A stretch of 63,925 bases of DNA, the filler included, from Collodictyon triciliatum (taxonomy: Eukaryota), in the NCBI GenBank assembly GCA_043381765.1. It is 4 parts of 4 records of this genome, joined end to end, with 100 filler letters (N's around TTAATTAATTAA, not from the genome) between each part and the next. Parts side by side here need not be neighbours in the genome. Positions count along the whole stretch, not along the records: positions 19,528 to 38,947 come from JBHJMP010001301.1; 3 more parts are not named here. One strand, 5' to 3'. The notes under the pieces were generated by a model. That model was not told where the DNA came from. It was given only the letters and a program-made list of their open reading frames with translations, and ran no database searches. Below are positions 24,372 to 35,160 of the stretch, one piece after another (positions within the stretch are counted from its first letter, which is position 1; every line of letters starts with the position of its first letter). Made by a program: the position numbers and the translations under genes.

Positions 24372-27676
<3,305 letters not shown>

Positions 27677-28213
27677 ATGAAACAGTTGAGGGGAAGTTTA
27701 ATCTACCAGCCACGTTATTTTCTCTCTCGCTTCTTGACTAATCGAGAGCATTTTTTTTCTCAACGATAAAAAAATAGTTGTTCCGACTATTAATAATTTT
27801 TTCATGCATTTCTTTCCACCATCTCTACAAACGCATTAAAAAAAAAAAAAAAAGGGAACGCCAAGTAAGGCCACCCAGCCATCCCCTTCAAGCTATCAGA
27901 CAAATTACAGTTTGCGCCTAGTTTGTGATTATCGATATTTAGAGCAGGGTGTAATAGAGTGAGTCTATCTACTTTTGCACACTCAGTTGAATGTTTCCTT
28001 CCTTCCTTCCTTCATTTATTTGCTCGACACATCGCCGAGTTACACTATCCAAAAAAAAAAAATTGGCCAAGAGAGTGGGGTTTATTTTAATTTGGGACCA
28101 CGAGAAGAGCGTGTGCATAAACGCGGGATGTTCCTATTGCGTTGCATTAGATATATTTTATCCTAGTCGTTATGACAGACGCAACACATCTTCGTTTGAG
28201 ATGTTCATGAGGG

Positions 28214-30466
28214 TTAGTGGCCAAAGATCTTGTAAGAGAGGGGGACAGACACCAAGCAACAGACAACTTGCAGTGGCAGGCCAATCTTTGTGTAGTCAAA
28301 GAACTTGTATCCTCCAGGCCCGGCAACCATCAAGTTCGTTTGATATCCAATCGGCGTGGAGAAGTCAGCAGACCCGGCCAAAGCTAGCGCATACATGTAC
28401 GCTTTTGCATTTACGCCAGTGATTTTCGCTGTTTTCACGGCGATGGGGAACATCAGGGTTGCGGATGCGCTGTTAGATAGGAGCGCCGTGAGAATAACCG
28501 TACCGATATATATGGCATAGAGCCCGCCTATCGGACCGAGCCCTTCAAACCCACTGACAAGGTTATTAGCCAACTTATCAGCAATACCTGTGGTTGTCAA
28601 AGCGGTCGCTATGCCATCAGCACCAGCGATAGTCAAGAGGGTGCAAGCAGGGACGCTTCTCTTTGCCTCCACAGTTCCGGATATGCCCAGAGCAAAGTAA
28701 GCAAAGACGCAAGCAAGAGCTGTATTGGATAGTTCAATTTCAATAGAATTCTGAGCATTTAGAATCACCAGGGCTATCATGAGGGCAAACGCAGCTTGCA
28801 TCTTCCAGCGAGCCCCAGATGTAGTGTAGCTGTGAACGACGCCAGAGACAAGGGCAAAGGTGGGGTCATGTCTATAGTCCTCGACGAAGGATGGTGGTGC
28901 CTCAACCAGCAGCGTATCTCCGGCTCTAAGGATAATATCACCTACTTTCCCTTCCAGTCGCTCTCCCCCACGATGAACAGACAAAATGGCTGCTCCGAAT
29001 TCTGAACGAAAACGAGAAGTTCGAACAGTCTTTCCAATCAAAGGAGAACGAACATTCACCACAGCTTCGACTAGGATTCGGTGCCCATCAATACCGATAG
29101 ACCCATCAAAAGACGGGACGAAGTCAGTACTCTTCCACAAGTAGCGGGCACCCTCGACAGCTCCAGTGAAGCAGAGCTTGTCCCCAGCCTCGATGATGAC
29201 GTCACCTGAAGGAGCAGAGATGACCTCACCGGTCTTGCGCTCGATGTCAACCAGATATACGGCAGGCAAGTGGCGAAGATTATTTTTTTCCACTGAATGT
29301 CCTACCATGTCACTGCCACCGCGAACAATGACACGAATAGCGTATCTGCGACTGTCTTCAGTGAGAGTGGCGCGAATTCCTTTGCGGTCTGGGAGGAGGA
29401 ATGGGGAGGCCAGGGAGACATAAATGATTCCAGCAATAGTAAGAGGTGCACCAACAGCGCCGATTTCAAAAAATGGAAGTTTCATGTTCGGATATTCGGC
29501 AGTAGCAAGAGCTTTCACAACCAGATTAGTGGAAGTGCCAATGATTGTGAGGAGGCCTCCCAAGATGGTGGCATAGCTGAGAGGAATCATATACTTTGAT
29601 GGAGGGAGATTGTAGCGCTGACACCAAGCCTCGACCACCGGAATGAAGACAGCCACCTGGGGGATGTTGTTTGTCCAGGCAGAGATGAATCCATTTACAA
29701 TCATGAATCGAAACTGGGATGTGTAGATGTTCCAAGGACGTCCCATACAATATTTGGATATGTACTCAATAGCACCGGATTCCTCAATACCATTCGCCAC
29801 AATCAACATGAGTGCGATGGTCAAGACGGAGTCGTTTCCCAAGCCTTTGAATGATTGAGCTGGAGTAATGATTTCGCGATACAGAAGCAGGGTGCTGCAG
29901 CCAAAGAGAGCGATATCAGGGTCGGTGATTCCACGAACCAGAATAACGATGGCAATGTATAGAGTCCATATGGTATACCAGGCATCGTTGCTGAGTTCCT
30001 TCCAAGATGTTTGGTAGCGGAGAAGCAAGAGAAGAATCAAAGTGACCAGGAAAACAGTCAAAGATATTTTTTCGCTCCAAGCCATGTCAGCGATTGTTTG
30101 AATTAGTGACTTGTCCTCATCGTCTTCCAAGTCTTTTTCCTCATCCTTTTGGTGCTCCTGGATGGCGCCTTTCCCATCTAGGGCATTCAGATGAGAAGCT
30201 TCTTTTCCATGGCTCTTTTCACCAAACAGGTTGAAGTGGTGGCTATGCGGTCCATGTTTCTTGTGGGGGTCTTGAATCTGAAGAAAATCAGGGACATCAT
30301 CGTTCAAGTGACGCTCGGCACGGGTTGGGGCTTGAAAAGGTCGACCGAATTGGTCACAATCCTGCAAGTTATCGGAGGCCCACTTGTAGGGGTAAAAGAA
30401 TGATGATGTATTAGATGTTGGCCCCGCAACCAAGGTGCGCAGGGGTATCTCTACAGCTTGCCTCAT
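28214..30466 (-). CDS. SLC13/DASS-family Na+/sulfate (SLT-type) symporter with two TrkA-C (RCK-C) domains; single coding exon, 750 aa
   Basis: Polytopic ORF with GLGNDSVLTIA, SAWTNNIPQVAVFIP, PSKYMIPLSYATILGGLLTIIGTSTNLVV, LPFFEIGAVG, LLPDR, TrkA-C repeats (SPLIGKTVRTSRFRSEFGAAILSVHRGGE..GDTLLV), TALLSNSASATLMFP and FSTPIGYQTNLMVAGPGGYKFFDYTKIGLPL. Confidence 0.93.
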   Translation of the reverse strand: MRQAVEIPLRTLVAGPTSNTSSFFYPYKWASDNLQDCDQFGRPFQAPTRAERHLNDDVPDFLQIQDPHKKHGPHSHHFNLFGEKSHGKEASHLNALDGKGAIQEHQKDEEKDLEDDEDKSLIQTIADMAWSEKISLTVFLVTLILLLLLRYQTSWKELSNDAWYTIWTLYIAIVILVRGITDPDIALFGCSTLLLYREIITPAQSFKGLGNDSVLTIALMLIVANGIEESGAIEYISKYCMGRPWNIYTSQFRFMIVNGFISAWTNNIPQVAVFIPVVEAWCQRYNLPPSKYMIPLSYATILGGLLTIIGTSTNLVVKALATAEYPNMKLPFFEIGAVGAPLTIAGIIYVSLASPFLLPDRKGIRATLTEDSRRYAIRVIVRGGSDMVGHSVEKNNLRHLPAVYLVDIERKTGEVISAPSGDVIIEAGDKLCFTGAVEGARYLWKSTDFVPSFDGSIGIDGHRILVEAVVNVRSPLIGKTVRTSRFRSEFGAAILSVHRGGERLEGKVGDIILRAGDTLLVEAPPSFVEDYRHDPTFALVSGVVHSYTTSGARWKMQAAFALMIALVILNAQNSIEIELSNTALACVFAYFALGISGTVEAKRSVPACTLLTIAGADGIATALTTTGIADKLANNLVSGFEGLGPIGGLYAIYIGTVILTALLSNSASATLMFPIAVKTAKITGVNAKAYMYALALAGSADFSTPIGYQTNLMVAGPGGYKFFDYTKIGLPLQVVCCLVSVPLSYKIFGH

Positions 30467-32513
30467 AGCTACGCTACAATAAGGGAGAATAGGAGGGGAG
30501 TTAAACGTTAAAAGTGGTGGGACTATATAACCTGATTTATTGTACTAACTAAATTTTGCATACAACGACAAAGAAATATCGCTAATAACACACACTACAG
30601 ACATGTGAAGTGACTATGTACGGACTGGAAAAAAATATAAATTCCTTTTAAATATATTATCTAGCCAGGTGGGAACCGCGAGAGTGTAAATGGGTACAGC
30701 GATGAATTTATGATGTTATAGGGGAGGTACCCCACGAGTTTTAGAGGGCAATTATCGGGCAATGATATGCTTTGTGACATTTATTTATGTCAGAAATAAA
30801 ATATACATTCTTTGGTTAACAACTGTTTTGATTTAATTTAATTTGATTTGTTGTGTTTTGTTTAATTTTGAACATCATGTTCATCATATGTTCAGTACTG
30901 CCACCACGCACGGAAGAAGTGAACGGTCCAATGGATTTTATATACACGCCCACACAGCTAACCATCCTCTATATGTTGTTTATATTTCACGCGGTACTGT
31001 TCCCTACGCGATATTTCAGACGAGGCATGTATGCTGTTGGACATGTCTGTTGTAGCGTTACACGGCGGTTGTCGTGTCCTTTTTGTGGTCAAGATGATTC
31101 CATCGCGTTCTGCATTTGGACTCACGACGCGCCAACCGCCTCATTTTTCTCCCTGATGACACGACCGTAATATAATTGTGCTACCTATGTAGGGACACAC
31201 ATAGGGAAGTCGTGGGTGGTAGTTGTTTAATGAAACTTTTCTAGTGAGTCGCATATATATATAAATTTAAATGTGTTTTAATATAATTTTACTCTATAAA
31301 TATGAACAGATAATGAATCATATTATAAATTCCAAATTTAAATGATAAACTGAATTCGTTTGGTGCGTAGAGTTCAAAAAAACAACGCGGAGAAGAAAAA
31401 ATTCTTTTTGAAATTGGCCACAATTACAAGGCAAAAGCCGCGTCTCTGCGCGTGGTTGCAAGCGAGATGCAGAATATATCCTATAACTGTACAGTTTTTC
31501 TGTATATGTGTTTAATTAGTTCTTAATTGGAAAATATTAAATTAATTAAGAATTATTTTTTTATAGAAAACTTATCATTTGAAATATATATATAACGTAT
31601 ATCAACTAATAATAAATATTATTGTATTAAAAAAAAAAATAAAGCGATATGCAAATTGCTTCTTGTCTTTCACGTACGCGTCCCCACGCGACGAAGGATA
31701 GCAGGTTGAACATATTGTGGAACACCACGCCAGAGACAAGATAAAGCTCTGCGTTTGTGAATTTGCGAAATATGATAGTAAAATTCATTTCTGTGAATTG
31801 GTTTTCTGTTCTCTCAAGCGCCAGTCGCACCGACAGCCGAGAAAGACACGTACGCGCACATGCACATGCACAACCATCGCGTTGGACACGGCACTGTGCC
31901 CACACACAGATAGGCCTGTCGTATAACAGCACAGAGGCGCCAAGCTTATGAACGGGCAATCTATAAATTGCACGAACAAACATAAGGATACTCCCACAGC
32001 CCAGACATTCTTCGTGTCCACTTTGTTCTTTTTCCCAGTAGACAACACTTGACACACCATTCCACGCCAATGTGGAGCGAGGAACAGGAGTTGATGCACG
32101 CGGAGGCAAAACAAATATTCACTTTCTATCTTGAGCCAGAGTTCAGAAAACAACATATTATAATTTAAGCATGATGAAGAAAGAAAACAAGTTTTTTTCC
32201 GTCCTTCCTTTCCCTCAACTCCTTTATAACCATCCATGTTTTTTACCTTTCTGTTTTTGGCTGTGTTTCAGTAGTCAGAGTAGATGGATTACTATTATTA
32301 TTATTATTGTTTATGTCATTCTCCACCATGACGATTTTCCACACATTCCATCGGCAGTCAGCCTTTAATTCCTTTTTTTTTTCTTTTTCCCCTTCCCCTT
32401 CCCCTTTTCCCCTTTCCTCCTCGACCAGCTATAATGACCCACCCACCCATCCACTTTTCCTTTTCCATGGCTCGTCTCGCTTGCGGACTTCTCAACTGCC
32501 CCCCACCTTGCAG

Positions 32514-34736
32514 ATGACGAGCTACAAGACAACGTCAGGCTACGTGCTGCGGTTCGACGCGGCCATGGACCAGTTTGGGCGGGGGTTTGAGGCGTCGGAC
32601 GGGGCGTGGGGGCACGGAGGGCCGGGCAACGAGACGTTTGCGGCGTTTGGGTCGACGGGCAAGGAGAAGGAGAAGGAGGAGGAGGAGAAGGAGGAGAAGG
32701 AGGAGAAGGAGGAGGTGGGGGCGGATCTGAAGGCCGGGGAGGCGACTGTGGAGGTGAAGGCGCTGACGGCAAAGGAGAAGCTGCGGAGCTACGCGCTGAT
32801 GCACGCGAACCACCTGCGGAAGCAGTGGGTGAAGGTGGTGATGTTCCTGGTGGTGATCATCCTGACGGCGGTGCTGATGCACGGGGACTGGGCGTTCATG
32901 GACCACATGCAATGGTACCTGCTGTGGTGCCTGGTGATGTCGATGGGGCTGCTTGCGCTGCGCGTCTCGTCGCCGGACATCATCCTCTGGCTGATGGTCA
33001 CGCTGATGATCCTGCACAACGACACGATCGAGCTGCGCAGATACTACACGGGGATGAGCAACGAGTCGGTGGTGACGTTCATCCTCGTGACCACGGTCTT
33101 TGCGTCGGTGGAGTACGTGGGGCTGCTGGACTACGTGCTGCACCGCTACTTCCGCCCGGTGGGCAGCCGCCTGGGCGGGCAGCTGATGGCGCTGCTGATG
33201 GGCGCGGGGCTCTCGGCCTTCTTCGACAGCCAGATCATCCTGCAGCGCCTGATCCCGCACGTGCGCGAGTGGGCCCTGCGCAGCCACATCCCGCTGCCCC
33301 AGGTGATGCTGCCGCTGGCGTACGCCGTGCAGGCGGGCGGGTGCCTGACGATCCTCGGCTCCTTCCAGACCATGACGCTGCGCGGCCTGGGCATCGTGGC
33401 CTTCCCCAAGCTGCAGATCCCCTTCTTCGAGATCGGCCGCGTCGCCGTTGTCGTCTGCGGCATCGTCCTCGTCTACACGTGGCTGCTCTCGCCCTGGCTG
33501 CTGCCCGACCGCCGCGAATCCGCCTCCTCCGACAAGCGCGACCTGCGCGAGTACACCGTCGCCGTCGTCGTCAAAAAGTCCAGCCCCACCGTCGGCAAGA
33601 CCATCGAGGCGGCCGGCCTGCGCAACCTGCCCGGCGTCTTCCTCGTCGAGATCCGCCGCCTCAAGGGCGAGCTGCTCCCGGCCCCGGCCGGCTCCGTCTT
33701 CCTCCACGCGGGCGACCGCCTGACCTTTGCCGGCGACCTGGACACCGTGCAGGCGCTGTGGAAGACAAAGGGCTTTGCCCCCACCTTTGGACCCGCCGAC
33801 GCCGACGGCCCCGACGCCGAGAAGCGCTCGCTGGCCCAGGACCTGCTCAACCCCACGCGCAAGGTCATTGTCGAGGTCGTCATCTCCATGCACTCCCCCT
33901 TAATCGGCCTGACCGTCAAGGAGGCCCACTTCCGCTCCCGCTACGGCGCCGCCATCATCGCCATCCACCGCTTCGGCCACCGCCTGACCGGCAAGATCGG
34001 CGACACCCTTGTCGAGGGCGGCGACGCATACCTCCTCGAGACCACAAACCGCTTCCTCGACAAGTACAAGGACCACCACCACTTCTCCCTCGTCTCCGAG
34101 GTCTCCGAGTCGGTCCACACCGTCCCCAACAAGCTCAAGATGCTCGTCACCCTCGGCGGCGTCGTCACCATGTTCAGCTTCATCGCCCTCAACAAGTGGG
34201 AGTACGGCACAAACGCCCTCGGCTGCGTCTACTTCCTCATGATCCTCCAGTGTCTGCCACTCCCCGTCTTCCGCAAGGCCTTCCGTGGCTCCCTCATCCT
34301 CGAAATGACCGCCCCTTTCACCATATACTACATCCTTAGGACCTATGCCATCACCACACAGATCGGTGTCGACTTTGTCGACCACTTCGAGACTGCCTGG
34401 GGTCTCCTGTGGGCCGTCTACCTCTTCTCCTCTGTCCTCTGCGTCCTCGTCGGCCCCGCTGCAACCATCGCCATGATGATCAACCCCATCTCTCGCATCG
34501 TCAAGCTCACAAGTTTCGACGTCCGCGCTTTCCTCTACGTCATTGCATTCGCCACTTCTACAAGCTTTGTTTCTCCCACTTTCATCCCAACAAACCTTAT
34601 GGTCGCCGGCCCAGGTGGATATACCAAGTGGGACTACGTTCGCTTCGGTCTCCCACTTCAACTCATATGTTCTGCTGTCATCGTCCCCATGATTCACGAA
34701 CTCTACGTCAATCGCAGCCCAGCCGAATACATCTAG
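32514..34736 (+). CDS. Second SLC13/TrkA-C paralog with degenerate ion/substrate-binding motifs; single long coding exon
   Basis: Colinear with the neighbouring paralog: GMSNESVVT, PLAYAVQAGGCLTILG, IPFFEIG, LLPDR, GLRNLPGVFLVEIRR, SPLIGLTVKEAHFRSRYGAAIIAIHR, TNLMVAGPGGYTKWDYVRFGLPL. The ATG at 32514 directly follows a pyrimidine tract plus CAG, so the upstream part of the called ORF (32307-32513) is probably intronic. Confidence 0.9.
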   Translation: MTSYKTTSGYVLRFDAAMDQFGRGFEASDGAWGHGGPGNETFAAFGSTGKEKEKEEEEKEEKEEKEEVGADLKAGEATVEVKALTAKEKLRSYALMHANHLRKQWVKVVMFLVVIILTAVLMHGDWAFMDHMQWYLLWCLVMSMGLLALRVSSPDIILWLMVTLMILHNDTIELRRYYTGMSNESVVTFILVTTVFASVEYVGLLDYVLHRYFRPVGSRLGGQLMALLMGAGLSAFFDSQIILQRLIPHVREWALRSHIPLPQVMLPLAYAVQAGGCLTILGSFQTMTLRGLGIVAFPKLQIPFFEIGRVAVVVCGIVLVYTWLLSPWLLPDRRESASSDKRDLREYTVAVVVKKSSPTVGKTIEAAGLRNLPGVFLVEIRRLKGELLPAPAGSVFLHAGDRLTFAGDLDTVQALWKTKGFAPTFGPADADGPDAEKRSLAQDLLNPTRKVIVEVVISMHSPLIGLTVKEAHFRSRYGAAIIAIHRFGHRLTGKIGDTLVEGGDAYLLETTNRFLDKYKDHHHFSLVSEVSESVHTVPNKLKMLVTLGGVVTMFSFIALNKWEYGTNALGCVYFLMILQCLPLPVFRKAFRGSLILEMTAPFTIYYILRTYAITTQIGVDFVDHFETAWGLLWAVYLFSSVLCVLVGPAATIAMMINPISRIVKLTSFDVRAFLYVIAFATSTSFVSPTFIPTNLMVAGPGGYTKWDYVRFGLPLQLICSAVIVPMIHELYVNRSPAEYI

Positions 34737-35160
34737 ACCTCTCTATCGATCCTCTCCCCATTCCTCGTTCTCTGCGGCAAGTGCTGTAAGAAAAAGATAC
34801 CCCGAAATATTTCAATCAGGGAGGAATGAATGAAAAAATAAAAAAAATATTAAAATAAACAAATACTTTACCTTGGCCACCGTTTCTATCTTCCACAAGT
34901 ATAGCACTCTTTTCCCTTATAAACTAATCCCATTGCTGACATTCTTTCGCTATGGAATCCTTTGCAGAGGTTTGTATCATATAGTTACAACCCATATACA
35001 CTTGTAAAGAAAGAAGTAGGAGTTATAATCTGCCCATCACTCTGGCGAATACTCTTTCTTATTTATATACAACCCCTCCAGAATAAAAGAGGATGGAGGC
35101 CGTCTCTCTAAAATTATATATTTTTTTTGATTGAAACAAGTGGATAAAACTGTAGCCTAC

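Follow-up and report, generated by a model that had tools for sequence, protein, structure and literature searches.

A SAC1-type DASS/SLC13 paralog with a rebuilt ligand site beside a canonical transporter gene in Collodictyon triciliatum

Carriers of the DASS/SLC13 fold are described as obligate homodimers (PMC7553777), and VcINDY, NaS1, NaCT and NaDC3 need the SNT-type tips of both their hairpins, HPin and HPout. In VcINDY, the Na1 site is formed by the side chains of S146 and N151 and the Na2 site by those of T373 and N378 (PMC5413979), while in human NaS1 mutating any residue of either SNT motif sharply reduces transport (PMC11584011). Chlamydomonas SAC1, a proposed sulfate sensor (PMC4212615, PMC8780407, PMC3355512), carries two TrkA-C domains, as SAC1-type proteins do, whereas SLT1-3 carry three or four; the role of these domains in SAC1/SLT proteins is poorly understood (PMC8780407). 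Here we describe two SAC1-type genes that lie head to head at positions 28214-34736 of a 63,925-nucleotide stretch of DNA from the freshwater protist Collodictyon triciliatum (assembly GCA_043381765.1; this whole stretch is the window, and coordinates refer to it). The first, copy 1, is canonical. The second, copy 2, keeps the fold, the TrkA-C pair and a motif of the N-terminal tail, has lost the ligand side chains, and is conserved and expressed in this rebuilt state. By fold, domains and tree position it belongs to the SAC1-type family.

Binding-site motifs of the two genes

Copy 1 (28214-30466, minus strand) encodes 750 amino acids (aa) and copy 2 (32514-34736, plus strand) encodes 740, each in one uninterrupted frame and in divergent orientation, with 2047 nt of CGCGT-rich sequence between the two ATG codons (30467-32513). 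A preliminary description of the locus had reported such a full-length divergent pair around a region of about 2 kb, with an unbroken copy 2 frame of 740 codons, and translation agrees with it on both points. No intron was seen in copy 1, where one contig from the cDNA-type run X2 spans 28206-30475 free of gaps. An ATG further upstream of copy 2, at 32313, lies in the same open frame and would give 807 aa; homology to its closest paralog, on contig C5519, begins at 32514. The two proteins are 31% identical over 736 columns of a pairwise alignment, and a domain search finds CitMHS plus two TrkA_C stretches in each. For copy 2, CitMHS scores 87 bits against a cutoff of 31.9, which places a DASS/IT membrane domain there, and the count of two TrkA-C stretches, found also in Volvox P0143, is that of SAC1-type proteins.

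On the minus strand, copy 1 carries the canonical motifs SAWTNNIP (29660-29683), GTSTN (29525-29539), TALLSNSA (28466-28489) and TPIGYQTN (28334-28357). The copy 2 motifs, located on the plus strand from its translation, sit where the preliminary description placed them. The HPin tip reads SAFFDSQI (33213-33236), with S234 kept and D238/S239/Q240 for the family's N-N-T (VcINDY S150-N151-T152). Loop L5ab reads GSFQT (33357-33371), with G282 kept and F284/Q285/T286 in place of S-T-N. The HPout tip reads CVLVGPAA (34440-34463), with C643, G647 and P648 for VcINDY T373, S377 and N378, and L10ab reads SPTFIPTN (34572-34595), with P688, T693 and N694 kept and F690/I691/P692 in place of G-Y-Q. A shift of register, under which the binding residues would survive at neighboring positions, is excluded because copy 1 and copy 2 align without a gap across all four motifs, and because copy 2 agrees with the family consensus at the anchors S234-A-F, P248, G282, P658, F685, P688 and N694. 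The earlier claim that all four motifs were lost holds for the hairpin asparagines, as neither tip of copy 2 contains Asn, but not for S234, G282, P688, T693 and N694; read from the alignment, the motifs are rebuilt and not wholly lost.

Mapped onto VcINDY, copy 2 keeps S234 (S146) and G282 (G199), whereas S150-N151-T152 is replaced by D-S-Q, T373 by C, S377-N378-T379 by G-P-A and A420 by F. For the N-terminal half, the mapping uses the internal repeat and flanking anchors, because printed alignments placed the C-terminal-half profile on both halves. At Na1, S234 is kept while the Asn is replaced by S239, in a column where 255 of 262 homologs have N and none has S; at Na2, C643 and P648 are found, the latter in a column with N in 224 of 262 homologs and P in two. 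The side chains that bind Na+ and the anion in VcINDY and NaS1 are gone from copy 2 in this mapping, as had been proposed, and its ligand residues suggest that it is not a Na+-coupled DASS symporter. Scored by eye with the pattern as printed in the supplement of PMC8780407, copy 2 does not match the sodium:sulfate signature PS01271, with two mismatches (T689, F690), compared with one in copy 1 (G698) and zero in SAC1.

There is a described case of Na+ sites replaced within the DASS fold. LaINDY keeps the substrate site, and Arg159 and His392 occupy the Na+ sites (PMC7553777). Copy 2 resembles LaINDY in having its Na+ sites replaced, and differs in that the substrate site itself is changed and holds an acidic residue. 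Counted along the sequence and not from a residue-level superposition, its R245 is found six residues beyond the Asn position, and no Arg or His occurs in the HPout tip.

Distribution of the changes and predicted fold

To place the changes in copy 2, 270 homologs of at least 380 aa were aligned (280 minus 10 cluster duplicates), and columns at least 80% conserved among them were taken as conserved. Copy 2 keeps 36 of 40 such columns in its TrkA-C domains (33546-33782, about residues 345-423, and 33861-34100, about residues 450-529, both plus strand), compared with 32 in copy 1, whereas in the membrane part it keeps 39 of 68, against 62 in copy 1 and 61 in the paralog C7595. Root-to-tip distances follow the same division: 1.89 for copy 2 on TrkA-C versus 1.97-2.10 for others, and 4.54 on the membrane part versus 2.66-2.78. 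The TrkA-C domains are therefore as well conserved as the preliminary description held, and by these measures the change in copy 2 is targeted to the membrane part. Scored by element, with helices delimited on an AlphaFold2 (AF2) model and given DASS names in their order of occurrence, losses concentrate in transmembrane helix (TM) 4a, L10ab, L5ab, the HPin tip, TM5a, TM4b, TM9b and the HPout tip, while TM2, TM3, H4c, TM6, TM10a, TM10b, TM11 and both TrkA-C domains are near normal. The change thus reaches past the four motifs into TM4a/b, TM5a and TM9b. Bulky residues stand for small conserved ones in L5ab, L10ab, TM4b and TM9b, and the TM9b scaffold helix (34287-34343, plus strand, residues 592-610) also has a new E597.

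Four motif tests, defined after copy 2 had been seen, were applied to the 252 homologs in which every test column is occupied: 187 pass all four, 54 pass three, eight pass two, three pass one and none fails all four, as copy 2 does. Word-based searches found no rebuilt ortholog, the best identity being 35% among the 120 matches listed, and among five shorter matches listed the best was 38% on a short fragment. A HMMER search of 1.84 billion representatives returned a canonical protein as top match, with none of the best 150 failing all four tests, and the ESM Atlas held family-level clusters only and no rebuilt ortholog; these searches could miss fragments ranked below the best-match limits. 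NCBIfam has no family for copy 2, and DASS TIGR00785 scores under cutoff for copy 1 and SAC1. We found no description of a degenerate DASS/SLT paralog in the open-licence literature. Separately, the red-algal SLT-type proteins P0208, P0193 and P0200 (Cyanidium, Porphyridium and Cyanidiococcus clusters) fail either two or three of these tests, apparently through independent partial degeneration.

The AF2 model of copy 2 (predicted local distance difference test, pLDDT, 85.2; predicted template-modeling score 0.82) matches NaDC3 with Z 40.0 and a root-mean-square deviation (rmsd) of 4.2 over 442 residues, consistent with the expected retention of the DASS fold. Across VcINDY, NaS1 (SLC13A1), NaCT and NaDC3, the matches run at Z 35-40 and rmsd 3.5-4.2 Å over about 410-440 residues, and the model keeps the DASS hairpins and broken helices. 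These carriers differ from copy 2 in having no TrkA-C domains and in needing both SNT-type tips, of which copy 2 has neither Asn. The model places D238/S239 and G647/P648 at the starts of the second hairpin helices; it cannot reveal a change in the cavity, because its alignment comes mostly from canonical relatives.

A further conserved element lies in the N-terminal cytosolic tail. Copy 1 has DQFGRPF (30335-30355, minus strand) and copy 2 has DQFGRGF (32568-32588, plus strand), the latter within an otherwise diverged tail. The pattern DQ[FY]GRxF, which is possibly a sorting or regulatory motif, is found in copy 1, copy 2, the C5519 copy, C4579a, C5847 and the Diphylleia rotans proteins P0141 and P0311, and in none of the rest of the 415 proteins compared, SAC1 and the C7595 set included.

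Relatives, duplication history and expression

Genome searches place the SLT family of C. triciliatum at 10-11 loci. All four motifs occur in six full-length genes (copy 1, C4579a, C5847, C7595, C7927 and C5705), and further loci comprise the partial C13159, the broken C1713 and an N-terminal fragment in tandem behind C4579a. C1713 (L033:214-1828) is related to C5847 and contains stops and frameshifts. The copy on C5519 is a second rebuilt gene, 83% identical to copy 2 and cut by the contig end; its motifs SAFFDSHI, GSFQT and CVLVGPAA are the same three rebuilt motifs that are visible. No SLT gene lies within 3.1 kb upstream of it, where a retroelement-like open reading frame (ORF) with a zf-RVT domain is found (L031:662-1771, minus strand). 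The head-to-head layout is therefore not a fixed property of the rebuilt type.

In trees of 32 sequences, copy 2 falls inside a clade with Chlamydomonas and Volvox SAC1, with Shimodaira-Hasegawa-like approximate likelihood ratio (SH-aLRT) support of 87.7 on all columns and 90.2 on TrkA-C; its position within the clade is not settled by the trees. A recent tandem duplication of copy 1 as the source of copy 2 is rejected, since the approximately unbiased (AU) test excludes an exclusive clade of the two (p = 1e-54 on all columns, 9e-5 on TrkA-C), whereas the test allows copy 2 as sister to the copy 1 clade taken as a whole (p = 0.11-0.32). The split is therefore older than the divergence from D. 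rotans. Together with the partnerless C5519 copy, this weakens the co-regulation that had been read from the layout, and the adjacency most simply records duplication history in a tandem-forming family.

Proteins of D. rotans (EukProt EP00002) are the nearest named relatives. P0141 (P012600) groups with copy 1, P0139 (P012930) and P0313 group with the C7595 set, and P0141, P0139 and P0311 (P017140) all have canonical motifs. P0311 is the top TrkA-C match to copy 2, at 57% versus at most 51% for others, and ranks first in 1657 of 2000 bootstraps (56 sequences). Among 11 proteins compared, it has 13 positions shared with copy 2 alone, against nine and seven for two paralog clades, and no closer counterpart of P0311 was found in the C. 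triciliatum genome. It is like copy 2 in its DQ[FY]GRxF tail motif and unlike it in its motifs. Orthology is neither rejected nor preferred by trees (AU p = 0.25-0.46), and P0311 is, on sequence grounds, the likeliest D. rotans counterpart of copy 2. Because its site is canonical, the rebuilding of copy 2 may postdate the split from D. rotans.

SAC1 itself (CHLRE_03g160400, Q39593 cluster) shares with copy 2 the DASS-type membrane part and the two TrkA-C domains, at 40% TrkA-C identity, and differs from both Collodictyon copies in lacking the tail motif. It retains all four motifs (SAVMNNTP/GTSTN/TALLSNGA/TPIGYQTN), and its membrane part is 48% identical to copy 1 and 25% to copy 2. SAC1, which the preliminary description offered as a precedent for copy 2, therefore fails in that role, as copy 1 and not copy 2 resembles it at the site. 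By analogy with the family, the substrate of copy 1 may be sulfate.

The GC content at third codon positions (GC3) of copy 2 is 0.89 overall, 0.88-1.0 over about 600 codons (32514-34300) and 0.55-0.78 thereafter (34300-34736), and canonical paralogs have 0.48-0.59. A horizontal origin was considered and rejected, because a desaturase exon elsewhere in the window (53839-54273) has GC3 0.93 and copy 2 is nested among eukaryotic SAC1-type proteins. Third-position divergence is patchy in copy 2 versus L031 (C5519) and in copy 1 versus L032, with diverged tails and near-identical core tracts, which suggests gene conversion among paralogs. The C5519 copy has a cluster of changes in TrkA-C domain 2 (V456S, K469G, E470D, H472Q, R474F), and this twin may be diverging in its regulatory domain.

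Such composition and homogenisation raise the possibility that copy 2 is a decaying or relaxed duplicate, now without function, in which high GC3 and gene conversion keep the frame open. A GC3 of 0.86-0.89 reduces the supply of stop codons, the core looks recently homogenised (third-position differences of 2-7 per 50 codons versus 25-30 per 50 in the tail), and the ratio of non-synonymous to synonymous rates (dN/dS) between copy 2 and C5519 is 0.49 by simple counting (p = 6e-4, 552 core codons). At this GC3, models with codon frequencies matter, and by maximum likelihood they give 0.16-0.26 over the 552 codons (p ≤ 1.6e-9 against 1), compared with 0.14-0.24 for three canonical pairs. The ratio is below 1 in each of three regions, and the selection is purifying, not neutral. 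The rate is normal for TrkA-C, against a gain of about 1.8 substitutions per site in the membrane part. Differences between the two rebuilt copies fall on only four of 100 rebuilt positions, compared with 23 of 243 membrane positions elsewhere (p = 0.12).

Transcripts also weigh against decay. Four of six listed runs were compared; X1 and X2 come from one study, with an RNA type that is the tool's guess, and the scattered cover in X4 and X6 was not counted as evidence. Contigs of X1 and X2, both cDNA-type runs, each cover both ORFs, so that lack of expression, which had been named as a fatal outcome, was not seen. Loose contig ends bear poly(A) behind 34879 and 34854, and 34854-34879 (plus strand) is likely the 3' end region of the copy 2 mRNA. 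Other loose ends in X1/X2 are adapter-like, and we take them to be template-switch oligo. One X1 loose end matches C5519 exactly, and the C5519 copy therefore appears to be transcribed too. Both runs contain two allelic insertions within loops of copy 2, one of 15 nt and one of 12 nt, each in frame, whereas the truly broken C1713 shows what decay looks like in this family. Contig depth is unable to rank the genes by expression or to show co-regulation. With no frame breaks, no neutral evolution and transcripts present, copy 2 is not a dying pseudogene; decay is largely refuted, and we consider it very improbable.

The shared upstream region and the flanking sequence yielded several further observations. 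Rfam gives no match in 30467-32513, which speaks against a structured RNA there, and no notable repeats were found. Transcript depth is nil over 30933-31896 in all four runs compared. The word CCATCGCGT occurs at 31100 and 31874, and lies upstream of four of seven SLT genes checked. It was dropped as a shared promoter motif, having been chosen post hoc and occurring 297 times genome-wide (133 for the control), and no alignment was found among SLT upstream regions. CGCGT-type words number 13 in 1.1 kb at 30989-32098 and 65 over the entire window, and TTGCCGCGT occurs five times on C4579; these words and CCATCGCGT, noted at 30989-32098 and at L032:1975 and 5707, may represent a general promoter element. 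Right before the ATG of both rebuilt copies (32500-32513 and L031:3085-3098), a pyrimidine tract plus AG resembles a splice acceptor, making an intron in the 5' untranslated region possible. One X1 contig lies over 32094-32281, with no joint among those listed. Downstream of copy 1 and convergent with it, an intron-containing gene at about 26300-27680 (plus strand) presumably encodes a TatD-type nuclease.

Possible roles of copy 2

Our preferred explanation, to which we give about an even chance, is that copy 2 has become a pseudo-transporter, serving as an accessory or regulatory subunit that does not itself transport. It would be an old paralog of SAC1-type Na+/anion carriers in which Na+-coupled anion symport was lost and a regulatory or accessory role retained. 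Na+ normally orders HPin-b and TM10b (PMC9098524). In copy 2, D238/S239 and G647/P648 could act as helix caps that hold the hairpins without the ion, the bulky F196, F284, Y605, I607 and F690 could also hold them, and D238 would bring negative charge to the anion-binding spot. Given such caps, bulky residues and an acidic residue, the elevator domain would probably be unloaded or locked.

A second reading is that of a re-specified carrier or leak in which the elevator still cycles and moves a different solute, neutral or cationic, with H+ or no coupling ion. This is the main rival, because polar residues cluster at the old site and the fold serves many chemistries, and we regard it as possible at a distinctly lower level of confidence. 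The new polar set D238, Q244, R245, Q273, Q285 and E597, which this carrier would use, is common to both rebuilt copies. H4c, TM6, TM10 and TM11 are kept, together with G275, G276, G282, P658 and P688; ArsB, Pho90, AbgT/MtrF and TRAP carriers also use the fold. An Asp at the D238 position is presumably present in OCA2/NhaD-type relatives. DASS exchangers manage without Na+ by means of basic side chains (PMC7553777), but the HPout tip of copy 2 has no basic residue and both hairpin asparagines were lost together. Small residues conserved at 90% or more (A622, G627, A629 and S312 of copy 1) are changed to I, A, T and F, and at the central position 240 one rebuilt copy has Q and the other H, which hints weakly that a ligand constrains the site little.

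A third reading, which we judge quite unlikely, is a stand-alone non-transporting sensor like Ssy1 or Snf3, a homodimer that would bind some new ligand outside the cell and signal by way of TrkA-C or the tail, independently of copy 1. The family includes the proposed sensor SAC1 (PMC4212615, PMC8780407), the two rebuilt copies could pair with each other, the scaffold helices are rebuilt and the tail motif is conserved. However, SAC1 has a canonical site and Ssy1 is believed to bind an amino acid as its ligand (PMC4238866), so that loss of the site is not the signature of a sensor. The tail motif is also present in canonical paralogs and is not specific to sensors. The yeast proteins Ssy1, Snf3 and Rgt2 combine a transporter fold without transport with regulatory cytosolic parts, and copy 2 may work alike; they differ from it in fold, and Ssy1 has a sensor-specific extension.

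For the pseudo-transporter, the least certain step is how it would act. The working parts of copy 2 may be its TrkA-C domains and DQFGRxF tail in the cytosol. It would most plausibly dimerise with a canonical paralog, whether copy 1 or another, and set that partner's trafficking, stability or response to a cytosolic signal. That it reads an external anion, as SAC1 is thought to, is less likely. VcINDY protomers move non-cooperatively (PMC12799101), which makes trafficking or TrkA-C a more probable route of control than the scaffold. When copy 1 was co-folded with both membrane halves of copy 2, the result was 0.52, versus 0.04 for the best of three controls, with runs agreeing in at least 86% of contacts and partner pLDDT of at least 69. 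Among solved pairs 51 of 78 reached the co-folding mark, and among mismatched pairs two of 108; passes at 0.60 or below, however, came from only five of the 78 solved pairs and from all four passing mismatches. Since DASS homodimers have been solved, the pass may show likeness only, and it offers weak support for a predicted heterodimer.

Several observations weigh against the preferred explanation. By analogy with VcINDY, the membrane scaffold need not transmit any effect of a dead subunit to its partner (PMC12799101), and the rebuilt scaffold elements TM4a/b and TM9b could favour homodimers. The shared new polar residues also fit a new ligand site. The counting dN/dS is as high as 0.49, and allelic changes in copy 2 are at least four synonymous and at least four non-synonymous, compared with at least 16 and at least five in copy 1. 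The head-to-head layout is absent at C5519, where R474F also changes a 99%-conserved TrkA-C arginine. Finally, all finds of the site-rebuilt form come from a single genome and its close strains.

A more specific proposal sees in copy 2 and its twin naturally occurring pseudo-subunits of the DASS/SLC13 family, with both Na+ sites and the anion site erased and the dimer scaffold and TrkA-C pair retained, that heterodimerise with canonical SAC1-type carriers and regulate them; we put it forward tentatively, as the less probable outcome. If true, this heterotrophic, deep-branching flagellate, which holds about ten SAC1-type genes, would offer a ready-made separation-of-function allele for the role of TrkA-C domains in SAC1/SLT proteins. 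A conserved, expressed member with regulatory domains and a rebuilt site naturally separates transport from TrkA-C function, and the outcome would be either the first regulatory pseudo-subunit found for this fold in the open-licence literature or new chemistry on a DASS scaffold.

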